64,000 bases of DNA from an uncultured bacterium (GTDB lineage Bacteria; Acidobacteriota; HRBIN11; JAKEFK01), in assembly GCA_963777505.1 (NCBI GenBank), contig CAVZQN010000004.1, positions 928,001-992,000 of the forward strand, given 5' to 3'. The notes below the pieces were generated by a model. That model did no database searches, had not been told where the DNA came from, and saw only the letters and a program-made list of their open reading frames with translations. The position numbers and the translations under genes are program-made. Of this stretch, positions 7,980-48,475 are shown piece by piece (position 1 is the first letter of the stretch; the number at the start of each line of letters is the position of its first letter).

Positions 7980-7989
7980 AAAATAAAAA

Positions 7990-16059: not shown

Positions 16060-16572
16060 ATGTCCAAAGAACAAAATTCCTTTGATATCGTCTCAAAAAT
16101 TGAAACGCAGGAAGTGAATAATGCTGTCCAGCAGGCAATGAAAGAAATTGCTCAGCGGTTTGATTTTAAAGGCAGCAAAAGCAACATCACATTCGATGGT
16201 AAAGAAGAACTCGTTATTATTTCCGACAATGAGCAAAAATTGAAGAGCGTTGTCGATATTTTGAAGGAAAAGCTCGTAAAGAGAAAAGTTCCATTGAATG
16301 GGATTATTTATGAAAAATTTCAACCAGCTGCGGGGGATACAGTTCGTCAAGTCGCCAAACTTCAGCAAGGAATTCCTTCAGAAAAAGCAAAAGAAATCGT
16401 AAAAATCATAAAAAACAGTAAGCTGAGAAAAGTTCAGGCAAGTATTCAAGCGGATCAGGTTCGAATCACAAGCGCTAGCAGAGACGAATTGCAGGAAGTG
16501 ATTAAGATGCTTAGAGAGAGCGAAGCGAGTCTCGGGATTCCGCTGCAATATACGAATTACAGGTCGAATTAG
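16060..16572 (+). CDS. yajQ: YajQ family nucleotide/c-di-GMP-binding protein
   Basis: SFDIVSK...EVNNAVQQA.KEI.QRFDFKGS, VQASIQ.DQVR, C-terminal QYTNYR. Confidence 0.92.
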   Translation: MSKEQNSFDIVSKIETQEVNNAVQQAMKEIAQRFDFKGSKSNITFDGKEELVIISDNEQKLKSVVDILKEKLVKRKVPLNGIIYEKFQPAAGDTVRQVAKLQQGIPSEKAKEIVKIIKNSKLRKVQASIQADQVRITSASRDELQEVIKMLRESEASLGIPLQYTNYRSN

Positions 16573-16614
16573 TCACCGCGAAGACACTTTGTGACTTTGT
16601 GGTAAATAACAATC

Positions 16615-17622
16615 ATGATTAAGCAACTACCACAGGAAATGTCGTTTTTTTCGCCGGCTCTTACCACGCATATTGAGGAAAAATTAGGATCCGTTGAATT
16701 GGAGCTCGAAAAGTATATGAACTCCGAAATCGACATTATTTCCCGCATGGGACAGTATATTTTTCAAAGCGGGGGGAAGAGGATTCGTCCACTTGTCTTA
16801 ATCCTTAGTTCGAGAATTGCTGGCTATAAAGGCGATTACGATATTCTATTTGCTTCGATTGTGGAGTTCGTTCACACGGCTACTTTAATTCACGATGACA
16901 TCATCGATGAAGCAACACAACGCCGCGGCCAGGCATCAGTAAATTCCAAATGGGGCAACAGCCTGACCGTCTTAATGGGTGATTATCTTTACATTAAAGC
17001 GATGTCGCTTGCGCTAACACGTGAGAATATGCGCATTCTTCGTCTGATTTCGGATATTACTCTGCGGATGCTTGAAGGCGAAATGATTAGTCTTGAACGG
17101 GATGGTGATATTGAAGTCTCCGAACTGGATCATCTAAATCTAATACGCCGCAAAACTGCGTATCTGTTTTCTGGATGCGCTCAAATTGGCGGAATTCTAG
17201 GCCGCGTCACACATCAACAAGAAGCAGCATTACAAAATTTCGGACTCAATCTCGGAATGGCCTTTCAACTAATTGATGACTTGCTCGATTTTACTTCGAC
17301 TGAACACATTCTTGGAAAACCTGTAGGGCACGACTTGAAAGAAGGAAAAATCACGCTTCCTTTGATTTACTTGCTTGAACGTGCCGACGGAAATCAAGAT
17401 GTTCAAAACATCCGTACAGCTCTGATACAGAAAAAATACGATACTCTTACCCGCGAACAATTGATGGGTCATATGGTTCGCGTAAACGCGTTCTCTGATG
17501 CCGAACAAAAAGCTAAACACTTTGCTGCCCTGGCAAAAGAGGATCTATCAGTCTTTGAATCCTCCGATGCAAAGACTGCCATGCTGGATCTTCTCGATTT
17601 TGTTATTCAGCGTAGCTGGTAA
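16615..17622 (+). CDS. Polyprenyl diphosphate synthase (IspB/HepT-like)
   Basis: GGKRIRP, HDDIID...RRG, RKTA and FQLIDDLLD aspartate-rich motifs. Confidence 0.9.
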   Translation: MIKQLPQEMSFFSPALTTHIEEKLGSVELELEKYMNSEIDIISRMGQYIFQSGGKRIRPLVLILSSRIAGYKGDYDILFASIVEFVHTATLIHDDIIDEATQRRGQASVNSKWGNSLTVLMGDYLYIKAMSLALTRENMRILRLISDITLRMLEGEMISLERDGDIEVSELDHLNLIRRKTAYLFSGCAQIGGILGRVTHQQEAALQNFGLNLGMAFQLIDDLLDFTSTEHILGKPVGHDLKEGKITLPLIYLLERADGNQDVQNIRTALIQKKYDTLTREQLMGHMVRVNAFSDAEQKAKHFAALAKEDLSVFESSDAKTAMLDLLDFVIQRSW

Positions 17623-26081: not shown

Positions 26082-26159
26082 TTGCTCGTTTATTTTCTGC
26101 TTCCAATCCTTTCTGTATTTATGCTACAACTATCAGAAAGGCGGGAAGGAGCATGCTTT

Positions 26160-26855
26160 ATGGATTCCCGCACTCGCGGTTACTTACCTCATCTAGAAGT
26201 TTCCAAAGGAACGTATTTTCTTACCTTTCGATTAGACGATAGTCTTCCAATATCTTTACTTCAAAAATGGAAGGCCGAATTAATTTCTAAACAATCTCAT
26301 CAACAGCAGACTTACAGACCTGCAGATGAATATGAAAAAAAGATTCAATCATATTTAGACACCAATTCAGGAAATTGTTGGCTTCAAAATCCAGATATTG
26401 CTGATCTTGTTGCCAATGCCCTACGATACTTTGATGGCGCACGGTATGTTCTTCATGCTTGGACGATTATGCCAAATCACGTGCATGTCCTGTTTACTTT
26501 AATAGAACCGTATAAGCTGCCATCAATAATTCATAGTTGGAAAAGCTTTACTGCACATAAAGCCAATCATTTTCTGAAGCGAACGGGACGTTTCTGGCAA
26601 CCTGAATACTTCGATCGCTCCGTAAAGACTTCACGACAGTTTGAGTATTGCGTTCGATACATTCTTAACAATCCTGTCAAAGCAGGTTTATGTAACGAGT
26701 TTTATCAATGGCCCTGGTCAAAAACATCGATTGAATTGGAGGGTATGGTAAATCGATTTTTTAGATTCCAGGAAGGTGGAGAAGAGGGTGGGATCCTTGA
26801 TGCAGACGGGACGTCTGCGGTCCCTGATGCAGGCGAAGACGCCTGCGGTCCCTGA
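26160..26855 (+). mobile_element. REP-associated tyrosine transposase (RAYT, IS200/IS605 Y1 HUH family)
   Basis: RGYLPH, YFLTFRL, IMPNHVH (HUH), WKSFTA, FWQ.EYFDR, YILNNPVKAGL, WPWS; AAGGAG RBS; flanked by inverted REP clusters. Confidence 0.9.
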
Positions 26856-30816: not shown

Positions 30817-32196
30817 ATGAATCTTCATGTTTGTATTCTTGCTGCAGGTCAGAGCAAAAGAATGCAGTCAAAATTATCGAAGGTGCTGCATCCTTTATGT
30901 GGAAGACCGGTTCTTTTACATGTACTCAAGGCTGTTGAAGCGCTATCACCTTCAAGTGTCTCAGTTGTGCTGGGACATCAGCGTGATGAAATTCTGGAAA
31001 CACTTGGATCGAAACAGATTGATGTTGTCATTCAGCATGAGCAAAAAGGAACGGCACATGCTCTTCATGAATATTTGAATCAAAAGCCCGACATTACAGG
31101 TACACTTCTCGTTTTGAATGGTGATACGCCTCTTGTTACAACGGATCTTTTGCGCCATCTGGTTCAAGCGGCGCACGATCAGAATGCTTCTCTTGCATTT
31201 TTTACCGCTGAACTTCACGATCCTACTGGTTATGGAAGAGTTTTCAGAAAAGGAAACGCGGTTGAAAGAATCGTTGAAGATGCTGATGCAACCCCGGAAC
31301 AAAGAAAAATCCGGGAGATTAATGCAGGCATTTATTTGTTTAATATTGATTTACTGAGAGATTGGATCCCCCGAGTACAACCTTCCAATAAACAAAGAGA
31401 ATTGTATTTGACTGATGTGGTATCGCTTGCATTGGAAGACAAAAAGAATGTGATCGCAGTGCGAGGAAAGTCTGAGGAATTGATTGGAATCAATACTCGT
31501 GCTGAACTTGCACAAGCGGCCCGGGAAATGCGCCGGCGAATTAATCGTGAATGGATGTTAAAGGGCATTACGATGATTGATCCCGAGACAACTTACATCG
31601 ATGCCGATGTGCGTCTGGCTGCAGATACTGTGTTGTATCCAAATGTTTATTTGGAAGGGGAATGTATGATCGGTGGAAGTGTAACGATTTATCCGAATTG
31701 CAGAATTACAAATAGTTGGATAAACGTTGGATGCGTGATTTACGAAAATACTTCAATCGATTCATCGCATCTTGAAACTGGTGTGAAAATCGGACCTTTC
31801 GCACGCGTTCGACCGGATACTGTTCTTGGAGCCAACGTACGGATTGGAAATTTTGTGGAATTGAAAAAGACCTCCGTAGGCGATGGGACGAAAGCGAATC
31901 ACCTTTCTTACCTGGGTGATGCAGAGATCGGAAAGAATGTAAATATTGGCGCGGGTACGATCACATGTAATTATGACGGTGAAAAAAAGTATAAGACCAT
32001 CATTGAAGATGACGTTTTTGTCGGGAGTGATACTCAGTTAGTTGCGCCCGTCAGTATTGGAAAGGGTGCCTATATTGCAGCCGGTTCAAGCATCACAGAA
32101 GATGTCCCAGCCGAGTCTCTAGCCATTGCGCGATCCCGCCAAACAAACAAAGAAGGCTGGGCCAAGAAGAAATCAAAAATCAAAGATAAAAAATAA
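30817..32196 (+). CDS. glmU: Bifunctional UDP-GlcNAc pyrophosphorylase / glucosamine-1-P acetyltransferase
   Basis: ILAAGQSKRM.S...KVLH, GYGR, EINAG, YLTD, hexapeptide region with GNFVE.K, HLSYLGD, TCNYDG. Confidence 0.97.
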   Translation: MNLHVCILAAGQSKRMQSKLSKVLHPLCGRPVLLHVLKAVEALSPSSVSVVLGHQRDEILETLGSKQIDVVIQHEQKGTAHALHEYLNQKPDITGTLLVLNGDTPLVTTDLLRHLVQAAHDQNASLAFFTAELHDPTGYGRVFRKGNAVERIVEDADATPEQRKIREINAGIYLFNIDLLRDWIPRVQPSNKQRELYLTDVVSLALEDKKNVIAVRGKSEELIGINTRAELAQAAREMRRRINREWMLKGITMIDPETTYIDADVRLAADTVLYPNVYLEGECMIGGSVTIYPNCRITNSWINVGCVIYENTSIDSSHLETGVKIGPFARVRPDTVLGANVRIGNFVELKKTSVGDGTKANHLSYLGDAEIGKNVNIGAGTITCNYDGEKKYKTIIEDDVFVGSDTQLVAPVSIGKGAYIAAGSSITEDVPAESLAIARSRQTNKEGWAKKKSKIKDKK

Positions 32197-32211: not shown

Positions 32212-33597
32212 CTACGGACGCCACGTTTCACCCATACGCCAATCGATAATTTCCGTTCGTGCTTCAGAAATCGCAGGTTCAATACCGAGCGCTTGCAGCA
32301 TGCTTGATTCGTTCGAAGGAGCATTTCCAATCTCGCACCACAAATGTGAATAGGGAAGGAATGTTTTTGCTCCGGTAATTCTGCAAATCTCAGCGACACC
32401 GTCTGGCCCTAATGTAATCAGGTCAGATATTTGCGGGAATTTTGCAATTTGATCCGCGGTTAAGGAGAGCCAATAGAGTCCGTTGCCTGTAACGTAAAAT
32501 GGGTTTCCACAGCCAACGCCTACCTGGAATTCCTGTAAATTGCTTAACACCACATCCACTCTTCCATAGTGATGTTTTACGTATTCAGCAACCTGATTCA
32601 TCGAACCATTCGCATCTGATCCCGAATCAATCAAACAAAAAGCAGAAAAAAACGGCGTTCGGAAAAAATAAGAATTGCCCCAGTTTCTCAGGCGCTTATC
32701 GCGTGGATACTCATATCTCAATGGTTGTTCACCGTAAAATGGAAGCGCCGAAATTTCAATGTCATCAACGTATACAGGATCTGAATACCAATCAAGATCA
32801 ATAACATTTTTGAACCCCATGGCGCGAAGTTCTTTGGCGAAATCAGGACTCAGAATAGTTGCTTCATTTACACGAGGTACGATGATGAGGATGTCACGCG
32901 GGAGTGTTAGCAATGAAGGAATATGATAATGATCTCTATGGGAGTGAGTTATTAAAACGGCGTCAACTATTCCAATGAAATTTTGGGGCAACATCCGTGA
33001 AGTAGTTTGAAGATTAGAGCTATAGCCGGAAACAAAATGAGGATCAACGATAATCCGTGCCTTAAGAGTGTTAAGCAAGAATGAGGCGTGCTGTAATCGG
33101 ACGATTCCGACTTCTTGAGGCTGAAGTCTCCAATTCGTTTCAACAAGATCTTCGACAAATATTTCCGCATCGAAAAGCGCTTGAATCAGTTTTTGATAAG
33201 GACTCTTGCTGAACAGGTCAGTTCTTTGATTTGCTTTTTCCAGAAGAAGAATTGTTTCGCCAACTTCGAAAACCTCCTTGTCGGTAAGATGATTCAGAGA
33301 AACACATTTTCCTGAAAAATTATTGCGAAATACAAACGTGTCAATTCTGTTGTTCTTATCAAAAAGTAAGCAGGACTTAAGCCCGAAATCGGATGAAACG
33401 TTTTCAAAAGATTCGGCTGCTTCAGGGAAAGGTTTTGATGCAGCATCAACAGCAGCCTGGATTGATATTCCTGAACGGATGTCGCGGGCTACTTTCGAAA
33501 TAAATGGTCTTAACGATGCAATGAGCCGGTCTGAAATCTTTCTCTCAGCATGAATCGTTGCGTTTGTTGAAATCATACAGCACCTGAATGTAAGCAT
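32212..33597 (-). CDS. Metallo-beta-lactamase-fold protein, putative RiPP tailoring enzyme (possibly CmlA-like diiron hydroxylase)
   Basis: HAS.L.....IIVDP, LITHSHRDH (HxHxDH), LPFYGEQ, LIDSG, PYSH; ~160-aa N-terminal extension; divergent from the precursor gene. Confidence 0.75.
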   Translation of the reverse strand: MLTFRCCMISTNATIHAERKISDRLIASLRPFISKVARDIRSGISIQAAVDAASKPFPEAAESFENVSSDFGLKSCLLFDKNNRIDTFVFRNNFSGKCVSLNHLTDKEVFEVGETILLLEKANQRTDLFSKSPYQKLIQALFDAEIFVEDLVETNWRLQPQEVGIVRLQHASFLLNTLKARIIVDPHFVSGYSSNLQTTSRMLPQNFIGIVDAVLITHSHRDHYHIPSLLTLPRDILIIVPRVNEATILSPDFAKELRAMGFKNVIDLDWYSDPVYVDDIEISALPFYGEQPLRYEYPRDKRLRNWGNSYFFRTPFFSAFCLIDSGSDANGSMNQVAEYVKHHYGRVDVVLSNLQEFQVGVGCGNPFYVTGNGLYWLSLTADQIAKFPQISDLITLGPDGVAEICRITGAKTFLPYSHLWCEIGNAPSNESSMLQALGIEPAISEARTEIIDWRMGETWRP

Positions 33598-33619
33598 AAC
33601 CTGAAAGGCTCTTCAGGTT
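33598..33619. promoter_or_regulatory. Inverted repeat in the divergent MBL/precursor promoter region
   Basis: AACCTGAA-aggctc-TTCAGGTT; an extra half-site CACCTGAA at 33581-33588. Confidence 0.4.
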
Positions 33620-33678
33620 TGATTCAATTGGCATCTGCGATATGATGAACTTACCAAAACACCAGGAGGGGTTGAAGT

Positions 33679-34584
33679 ATGTCGGACCCTATTTCAAAAG
33701 GTGGATCCAAGCCACCATCTCAAGTCAACAAGCAAACCGAAATATCATCCACTCCGGAATCAACAGCGAAAGATTCCGCACAGATTCAAAAGAGTTCCAC
33801 TCCTCAAGAAACGCAAGATCCCAAGAAGTTAGCAAAGGCTAAAGGAGAACTCGCTTCGACCAAGAAATTTGATATGCAGCTGCAATCAATGAGTCAAAAA
33901 CTTGCGGCTGAACTTCCCAAAAAGGAAGCAACCGATCTAAGCTCATTGCCTGGACAAGTTCCAGGAAAGGTGTTGGACCAAAAGCTTGATGTCGCAGCGC
34001 CTGCATGTACAGGAACTTTGTTGTCCACATGCGGAGTGACTGATACGAAACCAACTGTATGCGATACGCTGTCAGGCTGTACAAAACCAACAACGGATCT
34101 GGGTTCAATCCCTGGCCGCACGCCTGGCACTATATTGGACCAAAAGCTTGATGTAGCAGCGCCAGCATGTACAGGAACTTTGTTGTCCACATGCGGAGTG
34201 ACTGATACGAAGCCAACTGTATGCGATACGCTGTCAGGCTGTACAAAACCAACAACGGATCTGGGTTCAATCCCTGGCCGCACGCCTGGCACTATATTGG
34301 ATCAAAAGCTTGATGTCGCAGCGCCAGCATGTACAGGAACTTTGTTGTCCACTTGCGGAGTGACTGATACGAAACCAACTGTATGCGATACGCTTTCAGG
34401 CTGCACAAAACCAACAACGGATCTGGGTTCAATCCCTGGCCGTACGCCTGGAACTATATTGGATCAAAAGCTTGATGTAGCAGCGCCAGCATGTACAGGA
34501 ACTTTGTTATCCACTTGTGGAGTGACTGATACAAAGCCGACAGTATGCGATACATTGTCAGGCTGCACCGGTTCTTTGAGGTAA
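33679..34584 (+). CDS. Putative multi-core lanthipeptide (RiPP) precursor: 84-aa N-terminal region plus four 54-aa repeats
   Basis: AGGAGG RBS; core ACTGTLLSTCGVTDTKPTVCDTLSGCT repeated four times; stop codon 21 nt from the stop of a lanthionine synthetase. Confidence 0.8.
   Translation: MSDPISKGGSKPPSQVNKQTEISSTPESTAKDSAQIQKSSTPQETQDPKKLAKAKGELASTKKFDMQLQSMSQKLAAELPKKEATDLSSLPGQVPGKVLDQKLDVAAPACTGTLLSTCGVTDTKPTVCDTLSGCTKPTTDLGSIPGRTPGTILDQKLDVAAPACTGTLLSTCGVTDTKPTVCDTLSGCTKPTTDLGSIPGRTPGTILDQKLDVAAPACTGTLLSTCGVTDTKPTVCDTLSGCTKPTTDLGSIPGRTPGTILDQKLDVAAPACTGTLLSTCGVTDTKPTVCDTLSGCTGSLR
33931..34569 (+). repeat. Coding tandem repeat, 162-bp period, four copies (last one truncated)
   Basis: The DQKLD codons recur at 33976, 34138, 34300 and 34462, exactly 162 bp apart. 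Confidence 0.97.
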
Positions 34585-34605
34585 TTTTGTCCGTGAATGG
34601 TGGCT

Positions 34606-37600
34606 TTATTCAAGCCACCATTCGATTTTTCCTTCCGATGCAACTTTGCAGACAAGACGTTTTTGATCCAGCACAACAATAATCACAACACGGTTATCGC
34701 TCTCTGTTCTGACAACTCGAATGCCAAGATCTGGTTCGTGAAAATCGAATGGTCCTTTCGGAACGATTTGCCAAACTATATCTACGACAGCACGTACAAG
34801 ACGATTTGGCTCCGCTTGATTTTCAACAACTGACCAAAATGGCGTGACGGTTTTTATTTCAGGAAAACTCCGCTCTAGAACTGGCCCACGATTTTGTTGA
34901 TCGATCCAGTAAATATTCCCATCTTCTCCGAGAATCCTAAAATAATACGGAATATCAAAACGATCGAGTTGTTTGATTTCGGAAGAGACAAGTGGCCGCG
35001 CTAGAAGAAAAGATTGGGTCATAGCGATTCCAGCAATAGGAAAGCCTCCGAGTTTTCGATCCAGCAGCGCAGCGAAATAACTTCGCGTAGGGTTGAGAAC
35101 AATCCGCATCGAAGCCCCTGTCAATTTTTCTTTCAGGTGATCCGCAATTTCTTTTGCATGAGCCTGGACCATCAACCATTGATCAGCGAAGCCACGCAAA
35201 ATTGTACAGACATGCTTTGTATATCCAAATGATCCATCCGAATTTTGCGCAAGATGCGGCCAGATCCAGTTGACTGCTTTCCAGGGTTTTGTAACAGGCT
35301 TAGGCCCATCCGATGTAATTTCAATTACCCAATCCTCAGAATTCAATCCACAATAAAGCGATGGTAAGGATAAAGGTGAGTGAGAATGAGGCACGACTTC
35401 GACACCCCAACGAGGTCCTTCAAGTAATTGCGTATCTTCCAGATCAATCACATTTCCAAACGCCATTTCTAAATCCACTGCATGAATTGAAATAAGAGGA
35501 GTGGATTGAGTGGTGCCGCTAACTACATTTTCTGAATGTAGATCAAATACTCCAAGACTAAAGGCATATCCCGCTAAGAGTCCTGCCGAATACCAGAATC
35601 GTTTTTCATCATGCTCTTTGAGCCGTGAAACTTGAGGCAGTGGAAAGTTGCCAGACTGTGAAAGCGGATTTAACTCGTCATCAAGTGGAAAAGTAACAAT
35701 GTCTGTGCTGTTTATTTGCTCCACATAACCATGTTTTGGACCAGCAACGATGATCCGATGTGTCGGTAACTGGGCGTTTGCAAAAGCAGGGCGAAGCCAC
35801 GCACGGCATTTTTCGGCAAGCGTCTCACCGTCATTACCAGCGGATGCGCCAGCTAACTCTCGATCGATCGCAACTGAGCGTCCTTTGTATAAAAATTGTG
35901 CTCCGTTTTCAAACAAAAGTGAGACGACACGATGCCCTCCAAAGTGTGGATCGCTTCCAAGCACTTGTATTCTGGTTAAGCGGCCTCCAATCTGTTGAGC
36001 AAGGACGCCTTGACGATCTGTCTCAAGCCGTTGAAACATGACTTCAAGTGCACTGATCGCCCCCGCAGTTAATTGCTTTGCAGCGCGTTTAACATTTGAA
36101 GCATTCCCTTCTGGATGCAAAACAATACCGGCAATCTCCCTAAGTACTCGTCCCATGATTGCAGGAGTCAATGCCTCTTTATTAACGAAACTTCCGTAAC
36201 GCTTGCTCCATTGGTGACATGATTTCTTTACTTCGTCCAGAGCTTGAAAATATGAATCCCCAGCAGGACAATTGGAAATTTGTTTCAGAATCGAATGCGC
36301 GTCATTCGGTTGCAGTTGGCCTACAACTAAAAAGTTTGCGTCGTTCTTAAATCGAATTCCGCCGGGTGGCAAAAGTTCAGCAGGAATTTGATATGACGAA
36401 AACTTTTTACCGGCTTTTTTGTTTAATCGTTTGGTCGATCTCAATAAAATTGGATCGCGATTCATTGTTAAGATTGGAAAAACAGGATAGCCGGATAATC
36501 TCAGCATTTGCCTGACGATTCCGCCTGTGCCCAGACCAAGTGAGGGGCCTCCACCTTCAGGCTTCAACGCATCTCGCCTGACTGCGGCGCGATTCTTCAT
36601 TCTGTTCGCGATGGACTGCGCACGTTTCGTCCAAATCTCGGAACCAGTTTCATCTGCCATATCTAAAAAGAGTTCAATCGCGCCTGTCAGGCCATGACAA
36701 TGACAAAATGGTTCATCATGATTGTCGGCCAGCGAATTCCATGTTGCATGAGCTGCAGATTCTGCAATTTCAAGCGCTGATGGATCCTTCAAAAGCCGAT
36801 GACGCGCTAGATATGCGTGACTGATTCCTGTGGAACCATGACACCAATGATCTTGAATCACACGATGTTCATCGCTGCGAGGCCATGCTGTTCCATTTCG
36901 GATACGAAATGATCTTGAATTCAACCAATCAAATGCTCCATCTAAAAGTGTTTTTGTAGCGGGATCTTTGGTTACGTGGAACAACTCAAGAAGAAACAAA
37001 CAGATTCCTGCAGCCCCATGGGCAAGGCCAGTGTGGGTCTGTGTCGCTAATTCACCATACGTTTGATCATTTGGAGGAAGCGGTTGTCTTCGATCTCGCA
37101 CAGGCCAGGCGAACATTCCACCAAAGTCGATTCGAGTCTCTTCAAGGAAAGAAGCTGCCTTCTTCGCATGTTCAAGAAACGATGCATCATGAGTTGCATA
37201 ATATAGTGCCAGAAATAGCCATCCTGTTCCCGCAGCACCTCTAAAGAGATCAGTATCTACGTGAGAAGTTTGTGAGAGAAGATTTCCGGCATGAATGGCA
37301 TAATCTAAATATCGTTGATCTTTAAGAACCCTCGCACAGGCAAGATGGAAAAGACCAACTCCTGCAAAACCGCTGTACAGGCCGTTAGCAATCGAGTCGG
37401 ATTCAGGAGTGCTTATCACCAACCCATAGGAAATTTCCTCAACTGTCTTTGCATAGCGAGAATCTCCGGTTGCACTGTAAAGATCCAATAACACGATTCC
37501 AATTCCAGCAGAGCCATCATATAACTTGAATTCATACCTTCCTTCAGTTCCAGTCTTTAGATCAGCAGGAAATCGAAGTCCCAGCGTAGTCGCGGTTCTT

Positions 37601-37680
37601 CGTTTCAGAATTTCGTCGCCTCCTTGAAGCGCCATCTTAAAATATGAATTTGTATTCTTCTGTTTTTTCTTGATACGCAT
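34606..37680 (-). CDS. Lanthionine synthetase with inverted architecture: N-terminal LanC cyclase plus C-terminal LanM-type (DUF4135) dehydratase
   Basis: N-half: YDGSAG, LYSGFAG, DLFRGAAG, GLAHGAAG, WCHG, CHG (LanC GxxG repeats and Zn ligands). C-half: SDPH..G, LYKGR, GYVE, DLHSEN, VDLE, RIVLNPT..Y, E..QL...DIPYY (LanM dehydratase motifs). Confidence 0.88.
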   Translation of the reverse strand: MRIKKKQKNTNSYFKMALQGGDEILKRRTATTLGLRFPADLKTGTEGRYEFKLYDGSAGIGIVLLDLYSATGDSRYAKTVEEISYGLVISTPESDSIANGLYSGFAGVGLFHLACARVLKDQRYLDYAIHAGNLLSQTSHVDTDLFRGAAGTGWLFLALYYATHDASFLEHAKKAASFLEETRIDFGGMFAWPVRDRRQPLPPNDQTYGELATQTHTGLAHGAAGICLFLLELFHVTKDPATKTLLDGAFDWLNSRSFRIRNGTAWPRSDEHRVIQDHWCHGSTGISHAYLARHRLLKDPSALEIAESAAHATWNSLADNHDEPFCHCHGLTGAIELFLDMADETGSEIWTKRAQSIANRMKNRAAVRRDALKPEGGGPSLGLGTGGIVRQMLRLSGYPVFPILTMNRDPILLRSTKRLNKKAGKKFSSYQIPAELLPPGGIRFKNDANFLVVGQLQPNDAHSILKQISNCPAGDSYFQALDEVKKSCHQWSKRYGSFVNKEALTPAIMGRVLREIAGIVLHPEGNASNVKRAAKQLTAGAISALEVMFQRLETDRQGVLAQQIGGRLTRIQVLGSDPHFGGHRVVSLLFENGAQFLYKGRSVAIDRELAGASAGNDGETLAEKCRAWLRPAFANAQLPTHRIIVAGPKHGYVEQINSTDIVTFPLDDELNPLSQSGNFPLPQVSRLKEHDEKRFWYSAGLLAGYAFSLGVFDLHSENVVSGTTQSTPLISIHAVDLEMAFGNVIDLEDTQLLEGPRWGVEVVPHSHSPLSLPSLYCGLNSEDWVIEITSDGPKPVTKPWKAVNWIWPHLAQNSDGSFGYTKHVCTILRGFADQWLMVQAHAKEIADHLKEKLTGASMRIVLNPTRSYFAALLDRKLGGFPIAGIAMTQSFLLARPLVSSEIKQLDRFDIPYYFRILGEDGNIYWIDQQNRGPVLERSFPEIKTVTPFWSVVENQAEPNRLVRAVVDIVWQIVPKGPFDFHEPDLGIRVVRTESDNRVVIIVVLDQKRLVCKVASEGKIEWWLE

Positions 37681-38369: not shown

Positions 38370-39026
38370 TCATTTCCAGTTTGGCCCTTCCATCCATGCA
38401 ACAAGAGAGTGCCTCGTCCCTTTTGTTACAGGCGTGACTTCATGTTCAAGAAATGAAGGAAAGATAATTGCAGCGAGGAATTCCCTTCTTTGTTGAATGT
38501 TCTTCGAATAATTTGCCTGGTTGAGAATCAAGTCATTTTTATCGCCAAACAGGAGCAAATCTCCGCCTTCATAATTTTCGGGAGGAGTGAGTTGTATTGT
38601 AAGAGACAGTTTGCGCTGAGTATCAATCCATCCTGTCAAGCATGTATCAATATGAGATTTGTAAAATTGGCCGCTCTCATCGTTCACTCCAGCAGTGTAC
38701 TCCGCTAACTGGATCGTTTGGATTGTATCAATCGCAAAATGATATTTTTGTGAATTGATAGCGTTGAGTAATGCCGAAATTTTATCGTATATCCAGGATG
38801 TATCTTCGGAACGATTCACCCAGCAAACTGTATTATTTCTAATATACTCAGGGCGCGGTTGATCGTTTTGTTGATCGCTAACTTTAGTGCCCGCTCTGCG
38901 TAATTTTCCGGACTCCTTTTCGCCTGTCTGAAAATACTGCAATAAACGATCCCGTTCTTCAATTGTGAGAAATTGGAGTACGACTACAGGATTGATGTCG
39001 AAAAGTTCATGTTTTTCAGAAGTCAC
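38370..39026 (-). CDS. 2OG-Fe(II) oxygenase (PKHD/YbiX-like)
   Basis: FYKSHID (HxD), RKLSLTIQL, YEGGDL, IFPSFLEHEVTPVTKGTRHSLVAW. Confidence 0.88.
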   Translation of the reverse strand: MTSEKHELFDINPVVVLQFLTIEERDRLLQYFQTGEKESGKLRRAGTKVSDQQNDQPRPEYIRNNTVCWVNRSEDTSWIYDKISALLNAINSQKYHFAIDTIQTIQLAEYTAGVNDESGQFYKSHIDTCLTGWIDTQRKLSLTIQLTPPENYEGGDLLLFGDKNDLILNQANYSKNIQQRREFLAAIIFPSFLEHEVTPVTKGTRHSLVAWMEGPNWK

Positions 39027-39038: not shown

Positions 39039-39422
39039 TCAGTTCTTTTTAGGAGTCTTGAAAAATTTGTTCAATTCCCATTTTCGGTAGAGACCGCGGA
39101 AGGCAAAACCGGCGCTTTTTGATGTTGACTTTGGGTGGTCCAATGGTCGTTGAAATAAACCTTTGACTACCATCGTAACGCTATTATCTGCTACCACGCT
39201 GGCCGGGTTACTTCGAACAACCAGATTCTGAGATTCAAAATCGCCCAACTCTACTGTTACACCATTTACCGTAATAGAAAGGCTGCCATTTGCTTCACTG
39301 AGGAATAGAATATCGTCTTCATGAGCATCGAGTAAAATTGCGCCATTTTCAATCCGCAATTCTGAACCCGATCCGATAACGCCTCCGGGAAATTCGTTAT
39401 CCGGATCTGATTTCAATTTCAT
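39039..39422 (-). CDS. Hypothetical protein (beta-rich, ~127 aa)
   Basis: ATG at 39422 with GGGAGG RBS; ends 12 nt before the oxygenase start, so probably co-transcribed with it. Confidence 0.5.
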   Translation of the reverse strand: MKLKSDPDNEFPGGVIGSGSELRIENGAILLDAHEDDILFLSEANGSLSITVNGVTVELGDFESQNLVVRSNPASVVADNSVTMVVKGLFQRPLDHPKSTSKSAGFAFRGLYRKWELNKFFKTPKKN

Positions 39423-39548
39423 TCGATGATCGCCCTCCCGCTCTCGTCGGTCTAAGGATATCATAAGCCTACTGAACGCTGAGTTTCAGTCGATGATTAG
39501 GGCAATGATGTTTGTTTGAGGGGGACGGATCACGTAAGAAAAATAAAG

Positions 39549-40013: not shown

Positions 40014-40184
40014 AGTTACCTCCAGTGGAAATTAACTCAGGAGGTTCACCATGGACGCCACTATTAAAGTTAGGTTTGAACTCCGTATATTCAACCTGTC
40101 ATCAATACTTTGTTGCTCGTTCCCACTTGAAGCAGAGAGCGTTAAAATGTGCAATGAAAGGTTAGGTTGCATCAAGGAGGAGGA

Positions 40185-40706
40185 ATGAAATCTGCTATTG
40201 GGTTCATTGCGGTTCTGCTGCTGATTGGATGTTCATCCAAACATCCGAACATTTCCGAATTTCCCGCACCAGTCACTCTTACCAAAGATGTATGCAGCCG
40301 CGAACCGGAGCTTTGCGAAAAATCTTGCGCAGATTGTAAAGATCGCAAAGATTGCATGTTGAATAACGGAGTGTGCAAAACAGGCGGACTACACTTTAAT
40401 GACTCCGGAGATACGGGTAACGATATCTGGACACCCGGATGTCATTACGAATATAAAGATGCTGCTTGCGCGCAAAACCAGAATTTTTTTCTGGGTGATA
40501 TCTGCGGGACGAAAAATCCTAAGGAAATCATCGAGTGGACTGTTTCGGCTTGCCATGGTGCGATCGGAGATCGGGAAATATTTGACTGTGATAAAGAATG
40601 CAAGCGTGCGGATCTAGGAAGGGGTACATGCGTCGTTGTACCAAATGTCTGCGCAGGAAAGGACAGTGCTGCGTGCAAATGTGATAAGCCGTTACCGACT
40701 CCGTAA
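40185..40706 (+). CDS. Cysteine-rich lipoprotein
   Basis: AGGAGG RBS, lipobox LLIG-C, 16 further Cys; C-terminal CxxxC...GxC...CxC. Confidence 0.7.
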   Translation: MKSAIGFIAVLLLIGCSSKHPNISEFPAPVTLTKDVCSREPELCEKSCADCKDRKDCMLNNGVCKTGGLHFNDSGDTGNDIWTPGCHYEYKDAACAQNQNFFLGDICGTKNPKEIIEWTVSACHGAIGDREIFDCDKECKRADLGRGTCVVVPNVCAGKDSAACKCDKPLPTP

Positions 40707-40771: not shown

Positions 40772-40872
40772 TTGCACCAACTAAAGTTAGGTCTAAAACC
40801 CTGTCCATGGGACCAGCCTGCTTCTTGTTCGTGCCTCGATAATGAGAAGTGTTGAATTTCTTTGGAGGTAAC

Positions 40873-41778
40873 ATGAACAAGGTTGGATCAACGTCATCAA
40901 GTCCTTATACAGGTCAGATTCCAGGTGCCGAAACAAACGAGAAAATCAAAAGCCCGGCGCAATCACCCGCTGAATCTCCAATAACGCTAGATAAGAGCGT
41001 CAAACAAGAAGCTAAAACACGCGAAAGTGATTCTGATTTGCAGGCATCAGTTCGGAAAGAAACTTTGTTTGCTCAAGTAGATAAGCCCAAAACCGGAGGC
41101 GCAAGCGAAGCAAAATTCGTTGAAAGAAACTTAAAGAGCGATGCAGAGGTTAGAAAATTTGCCACTGAAAAAGCTTTTCCCGCAATTATGAAAGGGCTGG
41201 AGAAATCAGGTTTAGGAACCACCGAAGAAACCTGTAATCTTGCAGCAGGAATGCTCATGACGGCATTGAAAAAACAAGGAATCGAAGGAGCAAAGATCCG
41301 TTTCACAGCCAATCATGCATTCGTTGAAGTTCCTACAAAAAAGGGAACATTGATTCTCGATCCGACTGCAGGTCAGTTTTTTAAAGAAGGAAGTGAAATC
41401 AAATCAAAATTGAAAGCAGAAGGTTTTGTTGGAACGAAAGAAGAATTAAAAAAGACGATCCGTGAAAATATTATGGATTGGAAACATGAGTCGAATTTAG
41501 AGTTCCATCCAAACGTAGTAAAAGTAATTCAGGGAGAACGAATGGATAAGGAAAGTACCAGGGTTGCGGAAGCGCAAATCGACGACTTAGCTCATGTTGC
41601 TGAATTACGATATTTTTCAGGAGTAGATTATAGCGGCCCCGGTGATGACGCGATCAAGCAACACGAATGGTATGAAAAGGGCGACTTGGATCAGCCTTTC
41701 ATTAATAAGCTCAAGTCCGACATGGGCCCAACATTAAAGACCGCATATGAAACGATGGAGAAGGAACTGCTGAAATAA
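40873..41778 (+). CDS. Papain/transglutaminase-like Cys-His-Asp protein with disordered N-terminus
   Basis: ETCNLAA (Cys at helix start), NHAFVEV (His), LILDPTAGQF (Asp); GGAGG RBS before ATG 40873. Confidence 0.6.
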   Translation: MNKVGSTSSSPYTGQIPGAETNEKIKSPAQSPAESPITLDKSVKQEAKTRESDSDLQASVRKETLFAQVDKPKTGGASEAKFVERNLKSDAEVRKFATEKAFPAIMKGLEKSGLGTTEETCNLAAGMLMTALKKQGIEGAKIRFTANHAFVEVPTKKGTLILDPTAGQFFKEGSEIKSKLKAEGFVGTKEELKKTIRENIMDWKHESNLEFHPNVVKVIQGERMDKESTRVAEAQIDDLAHVAELRYFSGVDYSGPGDDAIKQHEWYEKGDLDQPFINKLKSDMGPTLKTAYETMEKELLK

Positions 41779-41845: not shown

Positions 41846-43675
41846 ATGTGTGGAATCGTCGGGTATATCGGGAAGAAGGAAGTTGTTCCAGTTTTAATCG
41901 ATAGCTTAAAGCGATTGGAATATCGCGGCTACGATTCAGCAGGTATTGCTGTAGTAAATGATGGCGAATTGGTTATTCGCCGTGCCGCTGGCAAACTTAC
42001 CAATCTTGAAGATGTCTTAAAGACGAATCCCGTGCGTGGTCTATACGGAATTGGACATACGCGCTGGGCTACACATGGGCGTCCAACCGAAGAGAATGCC
42101 CATCCTCATCGTGATTGTAAGAATCGCATCGTCGTTGTTCATAACGGCATCATTGAAAATTATCTTGAGTTGAAGCATGCGCTGATAAAAGATGGCCATC
42201 GTTTTGTAACTGAAACCGATACGGAAATCGTCGCGCATTTAATCGAAAAATATTACGAAGGCAATTTACAAAAAGCAGTTTTGAAAGCGTTTGCGGAAAT
42301 TCGTGGCGTTTATGCGATCGTGGCTTTAAGTGTCGATGAGCCCAACATGATTATTGGAGTGCGGAATGGCCCTCCACTCGTAATTGGAATTGGAAAGGAT
42401 GAATATTTTATTGCGAGTGATGTTTCTGCGCTATTGCAGCATACGCGGGAATTTATTTTCCTGGACAATCAGGAAATGGCAATCATTAGTCCGGAAGGTT
42501 CACGCATCGTATCGCTCAATGGTGAGGCCGTGAACCGTGAACCGCACCAGGTTAATTGGGATCCTGTTCAAGCTGAAAAAGGTGGATATAAACATTACAT
42601 GCTCAAAGAAATTTTTGAGCAGCCCCGCGCGATTCGTGAAACAATTGTCGATCGATTTTCACTCGAATCAGGCAAAATTCATCTGAATGGATTTCAATTC
42701 AGTGAAGCAGATCTTGCTGCAGTCCAAAAAATTAATCTAATCGCTGCCGGAACTTCATGGCATGCGGCACTTGTTGGTAAATTCTTACTGGAAGAACTGA
42801 CGCGTATTCCTACTGAAGTCGATATCTCTTCCGAATTTCGATATCGCAAGCCAATCATTCAACCCGGAACGCTTACAGTTGCAATTACTCAATCTGGTGA
42901 AACGGCAGATACGATTGCTGCGATTCGTGAAGCAAAAAAACTTGGCTCATTAACTTTGTCGATTACGAATGTTGCAGAAAGTATGATTGTTCGCGAAACG
43001 CAAGGTGCTTTGCTGACTCATGCCGGACCCGAAATCGGAGTTGCATCTACAAAAGCATTCACAACTCAACTCACTGCATTTTATCTTTTGGCACTCTATT
43101 TGGCTGAGCTGCGGAATACTTTGAGTGTGCAAGAACGGGTTGAAAGAATCCAGGGTCTGACAACGATTGCGAATCTTGTTGAAGCAATTTTGGAAAGACA
43201 CGAATCGCTTGAAGAAATTGCAAAGAAATATCACAACTGCACCGATTTCCTTTATCTTGGACGCGGCCTGAATTATCCAATCGCATTGGAAGGCGCTCTC
43301 AAACTGAAAGAAATTTCATATATCCATGCGGAAGGATATCCAGCCGGTGAAATGAAACATGGTCCTATTGCATTGATCGATGAGAAAATGCCTGTTGTGG
43401 CATTAATGCCGAAAGACAGACATTTTGAAAAAATCTGCAGCAATGTAAATGAAGCGCGTTCGCGTGAAGGGAAAATAATAGCCATTGCAACTGAAGGTGA
43501 AGAAAGTGTCCGTGATATCGCTCATGATGTTTTCTTTATTCCTGATACGGATCCGCTTCTGACTCCAATTTTGACTGTCATTCCTCTCCAACTCCTTGCG
43601 TATTACATTGCAATCCGCCGCGGTTGCGATGTGGATCAACCACGCAATTTGGCGAAGTCCGTAACTGTCGAGTAA
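41846..43675 (+). CDS. glmS: Glutamine--fructose-6-phosphate aminotransferase
   Basis: MCGIVG, LEYRGYDSAG, GHTRWATHG, QSGETAD, C-terminal PRNLAKSVTVE. Confidence 0.98.
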   Translation: MCGIVGYIGKKEVVPVLIDSLKRLEYRGYDSAGIAVVNDGELVIRRAAGKLTNLEDVLKTNPVRGLYGIGHTRWATHGRPTEENAHPHRDCKNRIVVVHNGIIENYLELKHALIKDGHRFVTETDTEIVAHLIEKYYEGNLQKAVLKAFAEIRGVYAIVALSVDEPNMIIGVRNGPPLVIGIGKDEYFIASDVSALLQHTREFIFLDNQEMAIISPEGSRIVSLNGEAVNREPHQVNWDPVQAEKGGYKHYMLKEIFEQPRAIRETIVDRFSLESGKIHLNGFQFSEADLAAVQKINLIAAGTSWHAALVGKFLLEELTRIPTEVDISSEFRYRKPIIQPGTLTVAITQSGETADTIAAIREAKKLGSLTLSITNVAESMIVRETQGALLTHAGPEIGVASTKAFTTQLTAFYLLALYLAELRNTLSVQERVERIQGLTTIANLVEAILERHESLEEIAKKYHNCTDFLYLGRGLNYPIALEGALKLKEISYIHAEGYPAGEMKHGPIALIDEKMPVVALMPKDRHFEKICSNVNEARSREGKIIAIATEGEESVRDIAHDVFFIPDTDPLLTPILTVIPLQLLAYYIAIRRGCDVDQPRNLAKSVTVE

Positions 43676-43740: not shown

Positions 43741-46700
43741 CTACTCAGTTACTCGGATTTCTTCGATGGTTGCGGTTGTTTGCACAACTTTGAAACTAAC
43801 ATTGGATGAGGCCGGCACGGGTCCGGCGGGGACAGTCATTATTACCTGTCCGTTTACTGAAATCACAAACGCGGTGCCATCGTATTGGAGGCCGACTGTA
43901 TAAGTGACTCCGGGATCAAGCTGGAATGGTGCGGATTTCTTGGCCACGAGTACTCCGCCGGATCTTTGCCTGAACATCACCTTGTTAAGTCGTTCCCTAA
44001 GAATCAGCGAAACGCCATTCTGTTTGTCCTGTCTCCAATCCAAAATGATTTTGTCGAATATGCCGCCGGATGACTGGAGATCTACTTCAACGGTGCACGT
44101 GCTGCAGCCGAACACTCCTGATGGACTCCATGGTAGGGGCGCGAAGACCTGCGCCCTGCTGGAGCCGGTGCAAACAAGCGCGCCGGAATTTTCCTGGCAC
44201 GAACCTTTAACGACGTCCCAATCCATTACACCATCTTCGAAGTCATCGAAAAGCAGGTATGGAATAGTTTCAAACTCGGCCGTGACTGTTGTATCGGAGC
44301 TTAAGGTCACATTGCAGATTTCGTTGTTGGCTCCCGATGTGGAATCGCATCCGGTCCAACCATCAAAAAAGGAGTTGCTATCCGGTGATGCGGTAATCGC
44401 GAAGACTGTGCCGCTGTCTGCCTGTTGACTGCAATCTCCTGATTCTGTACCAGCGGTACTGCTACAGTTGATCGTTCCGCCTGGTGTTGTGTCCACCATC
44501 GTTCCGTTTCCGGTGCCTGTGCCGGCCGTTGTGAGAATCGGGTGTAGGGTGAAGGTAGCCGTTATGGTAAGGCTGCTCTGATTCACGGCAATGTTGCATG
44601 TGTCATTTGTTATATTTGTAGTACTAAGCAGAATCGCAGCCGGTCCATCCGCCGAATTCGAAGCCGAGATCAGGTGTGGCAACGACGGCGTAGTTGGCGC
44701 TGATAGCAGTGGTTTCGGTACAGTCGTTGGATGTGATTCCTCCGGTGCTGGTGCAGTTGATCGTGCCGCCGGGTGTGGTGTCCGTCATGGTTCCGTTGCC
44801 TGCGCCGGCTCCGGCGACTGTGAGAACGGATGGAGGAGTTGTGTCGATCGTGAAAGACCACACGGTAGACCACGCGCTGAAGGCGCCCGCTGCGAACGCG
44901 CGCACGCGCCAGAAGTATGTGTTATCAGCAAGCGCGCTTCCAGGCGTGAATGTGGAGACAGCAACGTTGGTATCGATTTCCGGACTGGAGAAATCGTTGT
45001 TGTTATCTACCTGGATCTGGTATTGCGTTGCACCACCGCCGCCGGTGGAATCAGTCCAATCAAATGTCGGAGTTGAATCGTTTATTGTTGCGCCATTTGC
45101 GGGAGAAAGCAGGACCGGCACGGAAGGCGGCGCTTGAATCGTGACGAGGTCCGCGCGATCACCGGACTGGTTATAGTGATGGAGCATCAGGATATCAGCA
45201 TTCCCATCCGGCTCGCCGGAAAGATTGAAAATCCAATCGAAAGCGGTTGCGTTAAGGTCATCCACGATCGGGATCATCCGTCCGGCAACGCCGAAGAACC
45301 CCTCATTCGGGGAAAATTTTGAATTGGTCGGATCAAAGGTCAACAACGGTGTCGTATCCGTGAATACAGTCGGAGGATTCGCCAGGGGATCGTTAAAATC
45401 AAATGTCATTAGCTTGAAATCGAAAGCCTGACCAGGATCTGTTGTATTTCCGCCTGTGTATTTTACGGTCCCAGCTCCTATTAGAGTATTCCAATAGGCC
45501 GGCGTGGTTCCTGAAGCCAGGAACATCACGTTGTTGTTGAAGATGTTGGTATCCATAACAGATGGATTGATCTGCTGATACTCGGTTATGCTGAATTCTG
45601 CACCTGCCCCGGAGCCAAGAAAATTGTTGATGTCCCGGAGAAAAACCATGAAAGTATCGCGGGAGCTGGATCCGCTAACGTTCGGTCTTGCTACCATGCA
45701 CCAATCAGTGCCGTCTCCAAACGCGCCGCCGGTTCCGTCCTGATTCAGATCGAGGCATAGCCACACATGTCGCATCGCGGGTGTATCCCAGTTTCCATAC
45801 ATGGAGAGACCGAAATACGTGCGGGTGCCCCCGACCGGGACATCGCTGCTGACTCCGACATACTGTATATCACCGCCATCCCATGCGTCAGGTCCGGGAT
45901 TCACTTCTGGACTTGTGTGCAAAAGCTCATACGCGCTGACGCGGCTGCGATACGTAGTTGTGCCCGCGCCCTGGTTCACCTGAACGCCAGTGAGTGGAAT
46001 GCTGACAACTCCCGTGGACGCGCCAGTATTCACTTGTGTTGGGGAATCCATATCAGACGCCGGGCGCGGCGCAGAATAAAGTGGAACTCGTAAATCTACA
46101 GTTGCTCCGGACACAGCATCGAGTACCGCATATCCCGTTTCTTCGGTGATCCAATGACGGAAAAAGGTATCTTGCTGGGTGGCGCTATTCACATCCATGA
46201 CATGGGTCATTGCGGATGGTGTGAAAGTAGTCGTCACGGTAAAAGTATTCGTGCTCATTGCGCCCACAGTAACGGAGCTGGGACTTACACTGAAAGCAAC
46301 ACCAGTGGCATCGTTGACCGTGTCGATAGAGAGGTTATACGTCACCGAAGTCCCTGTATTGTTTTCGACCGTGATGGTTTTATTTTCTGTTTGGGGACCT
46401 GCGTTGTTCAGAAAGAGATCTCCGGCGAATGTAACTCCCACAGCTGCCGGATTATCAGTGCCGTACGCGATGACTTCTTCAGTTGTTGCGTTTTCGACAT
46501 CGACTCTGCCTGCTCCGATACGGCTCGTTCCAAACCGTGCTATCAATCCGCCCGTGACAGTGCTCAACGAAAACACGTCATGTGTTGCGGTGCTCATCAC
46601 CAGGGCTTTCAGGTCCTCAACAGACCATGTGGGATATTGTTCGCGTAGTAATGCCATAACTCCTGCTACATGCGGTGAAGCCATGGACGTTCCGCTATTG

Positions 46701-48475
46701 AAAGCGCCTTCATTTCCAGCACAGGTACCTGTGTAACAGGTGCGCGTTGAAAGGATATTGGATCCGGGAGCAGTAATATCGGGCTTTAGCAGCAATTCTC
46801 CGGTAAGATTTCTGCGGCGAGGTCCGCGGGACGAGAAGGCTGCAAGAATGTCCGCGGAGTTTCCTCCGTTTTCAATAAGTTGGCCTTTTGCAGTGCCGAT
46901 GAAAGGATTGATTGCAGTGCCTGAGTCCAATGCAATCATTACAACCGGAATCGTGACCGGGTCTACAGCACCGTCGTCCGCCAACGATACGGGATTATTA
47001 TCGGTGTTCACGATCACCACGGCAGTTGCGCCGGCTGTCTGGGCGTTGAAAGCTTTTAGTTTTCCGCTGCAGGTGCCCCTGTTTATGAAAGCGACATTCC
47101 CTGCAGTAAACGTTGCAAAGTCTATAGCGTTGCAACCAAGTACGTTGGTTGGCTTCTGAAGCAGTGTAAGCGCTGGCGGAGCCGTTCCTGGAATCGCAGG
47201 AGAATAATTTGACTGATGCAAAGCATAGTACCTGTTATCCACAACGTTATCTGCATTCGTGTCAACATCCAGCGCGTTGTTCAACAATCCGCTGTCCAAT
47301 GATGCGGCAACGCTGATCGATTCTGTGACGGAGCCCGGCGTGCCGGTAATGTAGTGAGTGTCGCCGGAGTTGCCGGCCGAAGTTACTACGATTACACCCA
47401 CAGCCACAGCATTGGGGATCGCTGTTTCATATCCCGCAAAGCCATAGCTTGAACCAAGTGACATATTGATCACATCGTAGTGATCGCTGAAATCATCATC
47501 GCCATTCGGGTCCACGGCACGGTCGATTGCCTGGAGAACGAGATTGGTCGATCCTGAACAACCGAAGACTTTCAGAGCTACGATCGAAGCCTCCGGCGCA
47601 ACACCCGGACCGATCTCGAAGCCGGCAAGAGTGGCTGGAGTGAGATTATCGTAGCCGCCAGTGTAGGTGACGCCCCCATCCACGCCGGTGCCGGCAGCGG
47701 ATCCTGCGACGTGTGATCCGTGACCGTTGCAATCGGTGGGATCCGAATCCGGAACCGGAATATTAGAGCCATTATAGCTGTCACCTGCGAAATCAAATCC
47801 ATCAATTACTTTTGCTGTGGGAAATGTAATGCCATCAGAGTTGATCACATTAGGATCTTGTCCGGTGTAATTCACAGTACCTGCGAAATTTGCATGTACA
47901 TAATCGACGCCGGTATCGATCACTGCGATTGTAATTCCATTGCCTGTGAGCCCAAGTGTCGAAAGAGTCCCGGTTGAGTCCCACACCGTGTTCGCGCCGA
48001 TAAAAGGGACGCTCGTGGAATTCTCGATATAGTGTACGGGGGCAAGGCTGACCTTTTTGACGCCTGGCAGTTTCTGAAGCTCGCGAACTTTGCTCGCGTC
48101 CACTCTGATTACGATCGCATTCAGCACGCGCTGCACTGCATATAACTCGACTGCTCCAAGTTTCGTAAAGTTCTTCCGCAGCGCATCCTGCTGAGTGCGA
48201 ATCTCTTGCATCGATTTTGCAACAGCGGTGGCAGCGGCCGCCCTCCGCGCTCCATTGCGCATCTTCTCGGCGTAAACTTGTGCCGCCGGCTTCCCCTGAA
48301 GCTCGACTAGCAGTGTCAAGTTGCCGTCCGGCGCGTTTGGCGGAACTTCCGGTTTCCCTAGCTTTACGTCTTCCGACGCGTCGTTGCGCAACTTGATGTC
48401 CTCTTGTGCAAAGCAGAGAAACGGCGCAATGATAACCAAAACAAAACAAATCAGGCGTACTTGAATTTGAAACAT
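43741..48475 (-). CDS. Large secreted S8 subtilase (I9 propeptide, PA domain, Fn3/Ig-like and repeated beta domains), split by an apparent +1 frameshift at ~44629
   Basis: VIDTG, GHGSHVAG, SAGNSG and GTSMASPHVAG catalytic motifs; PA domain (RGTC...KAFNAQ.AGA). Removing one base after GWTGCDS reads on into ORF 43741..44682 (LSTTNITNDTC). Confidence 0.85.

Follow-up and report, generated by a model that had tools for sequence, protein, structure and literature searches.

A 64,000-nucleotide stretch of DNA from an uncultured Acidobacteriota bacterium (assembly GCA_963777505.1, contig CAVZQN010000004.1, positions 928,001 to 992,000; hereafter the window) encodes a 301-residue protein, P0001, built of an N-terminal region and four repeated cassettes, next to the gene of a lanthionine synthetase, P0002, in which the cyclase domain precedes the dehydratase domain. 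Taken as a whole, the evidence leads us to favour, by a modest degree, the reading of P0001 as a multi-core precursor of hydroxylated lanthipeptides, with a mini-leader placed before each core and cleavage after the invariant proline that ends it.

The precursor gene (33679–34584, +) is an open reading frame (ORF) without internal stops whose homologues share its start methionine. Residues 1–84 (33679–33930, +) form a hydrophilic N-terminal region. Cassette 1 (33931–34083, +) opens with a diverged spacer, TDLSSLPGQVPGKV (residues 85–98; 33931–33972), followed by the element LDQKLDVAAP (33973–34002) and core 1 (34003–34083). Cassette 2 (34084–34245, +) comprises a KPT-TDLGSIPGRTPGTI tail and spacer (34084–34134), the element (34135–34164) and core 2 (34165–34245), and the same arrangement is repeated in cassette 3 (34246–34407, +; tail and spacer 34246–34296, element 34297–34326, core 34327–34407) and cassette 4 (34408–34581, +; tail and spacer 34408–34458, element 34459–34488, core 34489–34569), after which the protein ends in GSLR (34570–34581). 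All four cores (residues 109–135, 163–189, 217–243 and 271–297) have the sequence ACTGTLLSTCGVTDTKPTVCDTLSGCT, with 4 Cys, 8 Thr and 2 Ser apiece, and all are preceded by LDQKLDVAAP. No Gly-Gly occurs before any of the four; each core boundary shows Pro-Ala-Cys instead. A sequence-only reading of this DNA had described the 84-residue region, the four cassettes with invariant element and core, the diverged first spacer, the lack of a double-Gly site before the cores and the GSLR end, all of which the translation confirms. Its repeat unit of a spacer and a core is also real, although the 24 plus 27 residues assigned to it omit the KPT that follows each internal core; the period is 54 residues, or 162 nt (in Tandem Repeats Finder, 3.7 copies with 95% matches and a score of 1046).

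Over the 111 nt shared by the four copies, 15 columns are variable and the changes are synonymous in 15 of 15, against an expected synonymous fraction of 0.26 (P about 2e-9 under uniform mutation). Relative to the other three, copy 4 has changes at 11–14 nt, but the encoded peptide is the same. Since only synonymous changes separate the cassettes, the identity of the cores is kept by selection on the peptide, and not by recent duplication alone. The same pattern argues against a 132-codon ORF on the opposite strand (33894–34292), which is disfavoured.

The synthetase gene (34606–37680, −) is convergent with that of P0001, the two stop codons lying 22 nt apart, and encodes a protein of 1024 residues, assigned by Pfam, NCBIfam, invariant residues and profile comparison with LicM2 and CylM. 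Residues 50–395 (36496–37533, −) correspond to a LanC-like cyclase domain (Pfam LANC_like PF05147, E 2.4e-47), and residues ~411–1024 (34609–36450, −) to a DUF4135/LanM-type dehydratase region (PF13575 from residue 531, E 4.8e-22), so that the order of domains is the reverse of that in LanM. Positions 592–930 of the NCBIfam LanM model TIGR03897 match residues 50–396 of P0002. Also, a profile of 16 members of the P0002 family aligns with LicM2 (6st5) in permuted order (profile 575–608 with LicM2 198–230, 690–722 with 273–305 and 887–919 with 493–525, and 90–401 with 636–974 for the LanC part) and further matches CylM 216–276; the single dehydratase stretches are weak in the comparison with LicM2, and significance is carried by the Pfam hit. 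The zinc ligands C280, C328 and H329, together with H221, are invariant in 16 of 16 members, as are D713, E717, N718, D736, E738 and K599, with H715 nearly so, and the D713-L-H715-x-E717-N718 motif, D736/E738 and K599 line up with LicM2 motifs. P0002 keeps the catalytic residues of both LanM domains and looks competent. These domain matches uphold the initial proposal that a multi-cassette, precursor-like protein adjoins a lanthionine synthetase, and P0002 is the sole LANC_like match in the 5.2-Mb genome. Cyclase-first synthetases of about 1000–1060 residues form a family of their own, with 16 database members at 33–71% identity in addition to metagenome loci (L004 4755–7865; L005 383–3493; L006 and L013 7995–11105; L008 659–3844; L011 2547–5630).

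Relatives of P0001 comprise 14 proteins of similar length and 4 shorter ones; two relatives are labelled Acidobacteriota. A search of 1.84 billion cluster representatives returned 11 hits, and the nine inspected were seven family members and two unrelated repeat proteins. The precursor occurs in two of the seven species-representative genomes of its family and in two of 401 genomes sampled from the phylum, both from one genus; the dehydratase half of the synthetase is found in the same two of 401. In all three loci with available DNA (the window, L002 and L004), precursor and synthetase are adjacent. It could be argued that P0001 is not a substrate of the synthetase at all, being a repeat protein with its cysteines in disulfides or metal sites that adjoins P0002 by coincidence, and the AlphaFold 2 (AF2) model of P0001 is uninformative on this point (mean pLDDT 38, no usable fold, helices only at 50–56 and 60–77). 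Against this stand the constant adjacency and shared narrow distribution just described, the lack of a signal peptide by eye in P0001, the disorder-like cores rich in Ser, Thr and Cys, and single-core homologues that have the typical form of a leader plus a core. We regard this alternative as very improbable and consider it highly likely that P0001 is a substrate of P0002. A complex prediction for P0002 residues 1–410 with zinc and precursor residues 46–135 gave no answer (score 0.00, no controls run) and counts neither way.

Cassette conservation was assessed in 20 proteins with 71 cassettes, of which 69, with 52 distinct sequences, were kept; the two set aside were a frameshifted cassette of P0007 and one of P0034 that is truncated at a contig end. 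The 13 apparently complete proteins hold 3–5 cassettes each and end 1–5 residues past the last Cys. The family maximum of conservation, 80–100% per column, is reached in the L(D/Q)QKxxVAxP element and in ACTGTLLSTC, the first half of the core. Conservation is also high in CDTLSGC, intermediate in the loop V(P/T)DTKxx(x) and lowest (30–70%) in the tail past the last Cys. The element always stands before a core and never after the last one, and in this respect it behaves like a leader. In L004, which has a synthetase 50% identical to P0002 and represents the deepest split, the N-terminal region has diverged strongly and the element is kept as LQQKINVAEP. The inter-core stretch of this locus spans only 16 residues (TRPQGT plus LQQKINVAEP), compared with 27 in the window, implying that the TDL..PG..PG part is dispensable and the L(D/Q)QKxxVAxP element is not.

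The sequence-only reading had singled out LDQKLD as a repeated recognition or cleavage element and had regarded the spacer as leader-like and proper to each core. LDQKLD does belong to the most conserved part of the family, but the full element is longer, and of the spacer it is the element, and not the TDL..PG..PG portion, that persists in L004. Likewise, every core does have the element before it, yet the 84-residue region is strongly conserved too, residues ~46–81 (QDPKKLAKAKGELASTKKFDMQLQSMSQKLAAELPK) being almost invariant among close relatives in the family alignment, so that a simple replacement of the leader is not what is found. We take the N-terminal region to be the primary leader. 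No Pfam or NCBIfam model of a leader family (NHLP, Nif11 or others) matched P0001; its KKFDMQLQ stretch may resemble the F-N-L-D-type box known in class I leaders.

The near invariance of the N-terminal region among close relatives would suit a different role for the element, namely that of a protease signal only, in a precursor that is cut into several cores and in which the N-terminal leader alone guides a distributive synthetase, as in the multi-core microviridin AMdnA/AMdnC. The single-core relatives described below, which keep the core without the element, point the same way, and PMC5934393 documents that an enzyme can work distributively on three cores that share one leader. However, ten conserved residues are long for a cleavage signal, three or four enzyme types would need docking sites, and across the L004 split it is the N-terminal region that has diverged strongly and the element that has been retained. 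This role for the element alone is, in our judgement, quite unlikely, and we continue to favour the element as a mini-leader.

Two single-core relatives were found. In P0037 (71 residues) a single core, ACTSGLLSTCGVKDTTKVLCDTLSGCT, follows a Gly-rich leader, and L008 encodes, just downstream of its cyclase-first synthetase, a 68-residue ORF with a leader ending in EEISGG and a CATGLLTTC core. As both carry a related core behind unrelated leaders, the core is, to judge from these sequences, an autonomous unit. Seven loci with distant cyclase-first synthetases, 29–37% identical to P0002, were examined, L008 among them. In five of them (L005, L006, L011, L012 and L013) an ORF of 70–93 residues with one Cys-containing core lies directly upstream of the synthetase and has a leader of the M(A/P)RIKIKDL...IRGG type; in L014, a 2.2-kb contig, no precursor ORF was seen beside the synthetase. 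A quick maximum-likelihood tree of 22 synthetases, rooted at the midpoint only, separates the four rows tied to multi-core precursors from the five tied to single-core ones by a branch with SH-aLRT support of 99, two of the four multi-core ties (P0005–P0022 and P0013–P0020) being presumed pairings, made on equal values for the longest contig (13571 and 4243) and not read from DNA. Since the distant synthetases adjoin single-core, double-Gly precursors and are split off in this tree, the multi-core form seems to have arisen inside a broader family of cyclase-first synthetases whose other members serve ordinary precursors.

Some of these distant loci contain further genes. A second small ORF occurs just downstream of the synthetase in L005 (3627–3815), L006 (11239–11430) and L013 (11239–11427), with a leader of the MARIKIKDL type ending in GG and a Cys-free, Pro-rich core; after it comes a Cys-rich ORF of some 700 residues (L005 3955–6048; L006 11567–13702; L013 11528–13660). 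These small ORFs may belong to a second pathway for peptides made by the ribosome and modified after translation (RiPPs) that shares the leader type. Also, the L008 synthetase locus adjoins a gene for a repeat-rich, secreted-looking protein of 2154 residues (4649–11113, −).

Unlike cassettes often coexist within single proteins of the P0001 family, which include a NVPDTKELCDTLSGCKRE type, a GVPDTKPTVCDTLSGCTKPT type, truncated forms with three Cys and divergent last cassettes. This mixing, together with the variable copy number, the single-core homologues and the lack of conservation of linker length, favours separate release: if P0001 is indeed a substrate of P0002, its cassettes are probably freed as individual peptides. 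The same chemistry could instead operate on a polypeptide that stays uncut, leaving four thioether-stapled, hydroxylated modules on Pro/Gly-rich linkers to act as a multivalent binder or inhibitor, with the N-terminal region removed or kept. Four identical modules suit multivalency, the cluster holds no conserved protease or transporter, the genome has no C39 peptidase domain match, and in the graspetide plesiocin four repeated bicyclic units stay together on a single peptide. Nevertheless, relatives that mix cassette types in one protein at copy numbers of 3–5, the existence of single-core relatives and a linker that varies from 16 residues in L004 to 27 in the window all tell against such a design, and the most conserved part of the linker lies against the following core and has an invariant Pro as its last residue, more in the manner of a processing or recognition signal than of a tether. 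We therefore consider an uncut product unlikely.

Under the favoured reading of a multi-core precursor cut into peptides, the N-terminal region and above all the L(D/Q)QKxxVAxP element before every core would dock the modifying enzymes, the element acting as a portable mini-leader duplicated along with the core. The C-terminal DUF4135 domain of P0002 would phosphorylate Ser and Thr and then carry out elimination, and the N-terminal zinc LanC domain would couple the four Cys in every cassette with the dehydro residues so formed, giving up to four thioether rings per cassette. Two 2-oxoglutarate (2OG)/Fe(II) oxygenases and a CmlA-like protein of the metallo-beta-lactamase (MBL) fold would hydroxylate the core, with the conserved Asp, Pro and Lys as candidate residues. 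A protease encoded outside the cluster would then cleave behind the invariant Pro (position −1), and trimming would remove the variable tail past the last Cys. The expected outcome in this genome is four copies of one peptide of about 27–30 residues; in relatives, two to four distinct peptides would be released together.

Several observations weigh against this scheme. Cys2 of the core has no conserved Ser or Thr upstream, and would thus need a ring formed in the reverse direction or stay free. The four modules of P0001 are identical, which speaks against separate release. Neither a protease nor a transporter belongs to the gene set conserved among the window, L002 and L004, and Peptidase_C39 (PF03412) has no match in the 95.9% complete genome, a control search having matched 7 of 14 control genomes; release and export are consequently left without a named agent. 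In the AF2 model of P0002 the LanC half is confident and much of the dehydratase half is poor, and Foldseek matched the LanC domains of CuvL, LanCL2, NisC and LicM2 and confirmed the LanC half alone, with the dehydratase half unmatched, for which reason the dehydratase assignment rests on sequence. The literature search returned no description or characterization of a cyclase-first LanM, and the activity of P0002 is deduced from its conserved residues. Finally, the L002 synthetase is split into ORFs of 800 and 199 residues by a 1-nt indel at about 11737–11741, which may reflect either a genuine pseudogene or an error in long-read assembly.

The candidate hydroxylases are encoded on both sides of the precursor and synthetase genes. 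Upstream, the MBL-fold protein (461 residues; 32212–33597, −; assigned by family and PDB matches) carries HSHRDH at residues 218–223, in which HxHxDH is kept, and its best PDB matches are CmlA-type non-heme diiron monooxygenases (8a90, E 4.5e-11; CmlA, about 9e-9). We take it to be a putative hydroxylase; to our knowledge, CmlA-type diiron beta-hydroxylases are associated with substrates tethered to non-ribosomal peptide synthetases, and we know of none from RiPP clusters. Two copies are present in L002 (8526–9977, −, and 15969–17372, +; 68% and 49% identity), and L004 ends at the contig edge on the corresponding side. Beyond the synthetase lie the 2OG/Fe(II) oxygenases a (PF13640; 37740–38363, +; 68% identity in L002 and 61% in L004), the true start of which is probably an internal MKIF, as in its orthologues, and b (PF13640, PKHD-type; 38370–39026, −; 72% and 58%). 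Both are common to the window, L002 and L004, with HxD...H...R kept in all. A third 2OG paralogue that also keeps HxD...H...R is found in L002 (14136–14696, +) and L004 (4093–4737, −), and no orthologue of it occurs in the window genome, where the only match is the gene of oxygenase b at 34% identity. The region of core residue 13 reads VPDT in L002 and L004, where the third paralogue is present, and VTDT in the window, a three-locus pattern which gives a hint that this enzyme might hydroxylate the Pro of VPDT. A conserved 141-residue protein of no known family (39039–39464, −; 65% identical in L002) completes the conserved gene set, and gave no match in Pfam, NCBIfam, PDB (E up to 10) or Atlas.

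As regards expression signals, an AGGAGG ribosome-binding site (33664–33669, +) is read directly 9 nt before the ATG of P0001, and a weak promoter-like site (TTGATT-16 nt-TATGAT, 9 of 12 matches; 33619–33646, +) lies further 5', the two such sites in the region around the precursor not being above the chance expectation of 1.7 in shuffled sequence. A terminator-like hairpin of 13 pairs followed by a T-run (34594–34624, +) occurs directly 3' of the P0001 stop and runs into the 3' end of the convergent gene for the synthetase. A search of sequencing runs listed no RNA run and two DNA runs with small shares (0.06 and 0.05).

The cluster sits between glmU (30817–32196) and glmS (41846–43675). Its GC content, 0.41–0.47, does not differ from that of the flanks, and the idea of a genomic island was set aside; an IS200-like (Y1_Tnp) transposase gene (26082–26855, +) lies about 5 kb upstream. 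Two nearby genes were considered as sources of the protease and rejected. For an S8 subtilase (1283 residues with PA and Ig-like domains; 44624–48475, −), in a stretch with GC of 0.53–0.54 compared with about 0.44, no counterpart lies close to the L002 or L004 clusters. A 309-residue protein (40849–41778, +), the low-complexity N-terminus of which somewhat resembles that of the precursor, likewise has no counterpart in L002 or L004, and its papain-fold toxin hits (Tox-PLDMTX, E 0.007) are sub-threshold. The genome gives 18 matches to S9 peptidases, none of them clustered, which is uninformative on release. A 179-residue protein (40167–40706, +) has many Cys and an N-terminus like that of a lipoprotein (LLIGC); it gave no family match and lacks conservation in L002.

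Among known systems, the class II lanthipeptides (LanM/LanA; CylM 5dzt, LicM2 6st5) operate in a similar way and share a DUF4135-type dehydratase and a LanC cyclase in one polypeptide, the Cys-Cys-His zinc ligands of LanC being present in P0002 and the precursor core being likewise rich in Ser, Thr and Cys. The present system differs in the reversed order of domains from the dehydratase-first LanM, in the four cores of P0001 (3–5 in relatives) instead of one leader and one C-terminal core, in the absence of a GG/GA site from P0001 and of a C39 transporter match from the genome, LanT processing being typical and not universal, and in the several oxygenases of the window cluster. In the cinnamycin and duramycin group a class II-type synthetase of canonical LanM order works with a 2OG/Fe(II) hydroxylase on a single core; the pairing with 2OG oxygenases, the conserved Cys-Asp pair and the Lys near the core end are, we presume, reminiscent of this group, and no DurN-like protein was found, the 141-residue protein having been searched by sequence against PDB only. 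The prochlorosins rely on one promiscuous ProcM and many ProcA genes, each with a full leader before a diverse core. The combinatorial logic and the conserved recognition sequences before diverse cores are common to both, whereas here a single ORF strings the cores together, each after a 10-residue element, and the P0002 cyclase has CHG, not CCG. The name class VI denotes the LanKCb of streptococci.

Precursors with several cores are better known outside the lanthipeptides. PatE-type cyanobactin precursors hold several cassettes per ORF with short flanking recognition sequences, variable in number and content between relatives, and the P0001 family similarly has several cores per ORF with a conserved recognition sequence. 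In contrast to cyanobactin clusters, no PatA/PatG-like subtilisin protease or heterocyclase is present in the conserved cluster, and the proposed chemistry is thioether formation and hydroxylation instead of azoline formation and N-to-C macrocyclization. No member of the ATP-grasp family, a feature of graspetides, occurs among the scanned cluster proteins. The microviridin precursor AMdnA has three cores in one bacterial protein, which the ATP-grasp ligase AMdnC modifies behind one leader (PMC5934393); P0001 differs in the extra conserved element before every core. The multicore burpitide system ArbA2/ArbB2 uses a recognition sequence to direct modification and processes several cores per peptide, with differences in its plant origin, copper-dependent BURP cyclase and aromatic cross-links (PMC12186524). 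In its precursor logic P0001 resembles cyanobactin cassettes and burpitides more closely than it does the single-leader microviridin.

The statement of the sequence-only reading that lanthipeptide precursors normally have a single core agrees with a 2026 paper, according to which multi-core precursors are unreported for lanthipeptides. The literature search likewise found no multi-core lanthipeptide precursor, its coverage not extending to supplementary precursor tables, where proteins of this kind could be listed. In Walker et al. 2020 (PMC7268733) the words repeat, Acidobacteria and hydroxylase are absent from the main text. It is tentatively possible, and somewhat doubtful at present, that these loci represent a new lanthipeptide branch, combining a cyclase-first LanM-type synthetase, a portable 10-residue element and polycyclic peptides multiply hydroxylated by 2OG and diiron enzymes.

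Lanthipeptides belong to the most thoroughly studied RiPPs; the accepted rule for their precursors is one leader and one core, and the P0001 family would be the first multi-core case. To this are added two further oddities, a synthetase with its domains in the order opposite to every LanM found described and a cluster with three to five oxygenases. Questions are thereby opened as to how one synthetase handles tandem cores, what role heavily hydroxylated thioether peptides play in uncultured Acidobacteriota-like soil bacteria, and whether a 10-residue tag can replace a leader, which would be of use in engineering. Should the element be enough by itself for modification, it would constitute a minimal, leader-independent tag for the installation of lanthionines. 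If it is truly portable, cassettes could be duplicated and shuffled within one ORF, and the precursors of this family would amount to a natural combinatorial library.

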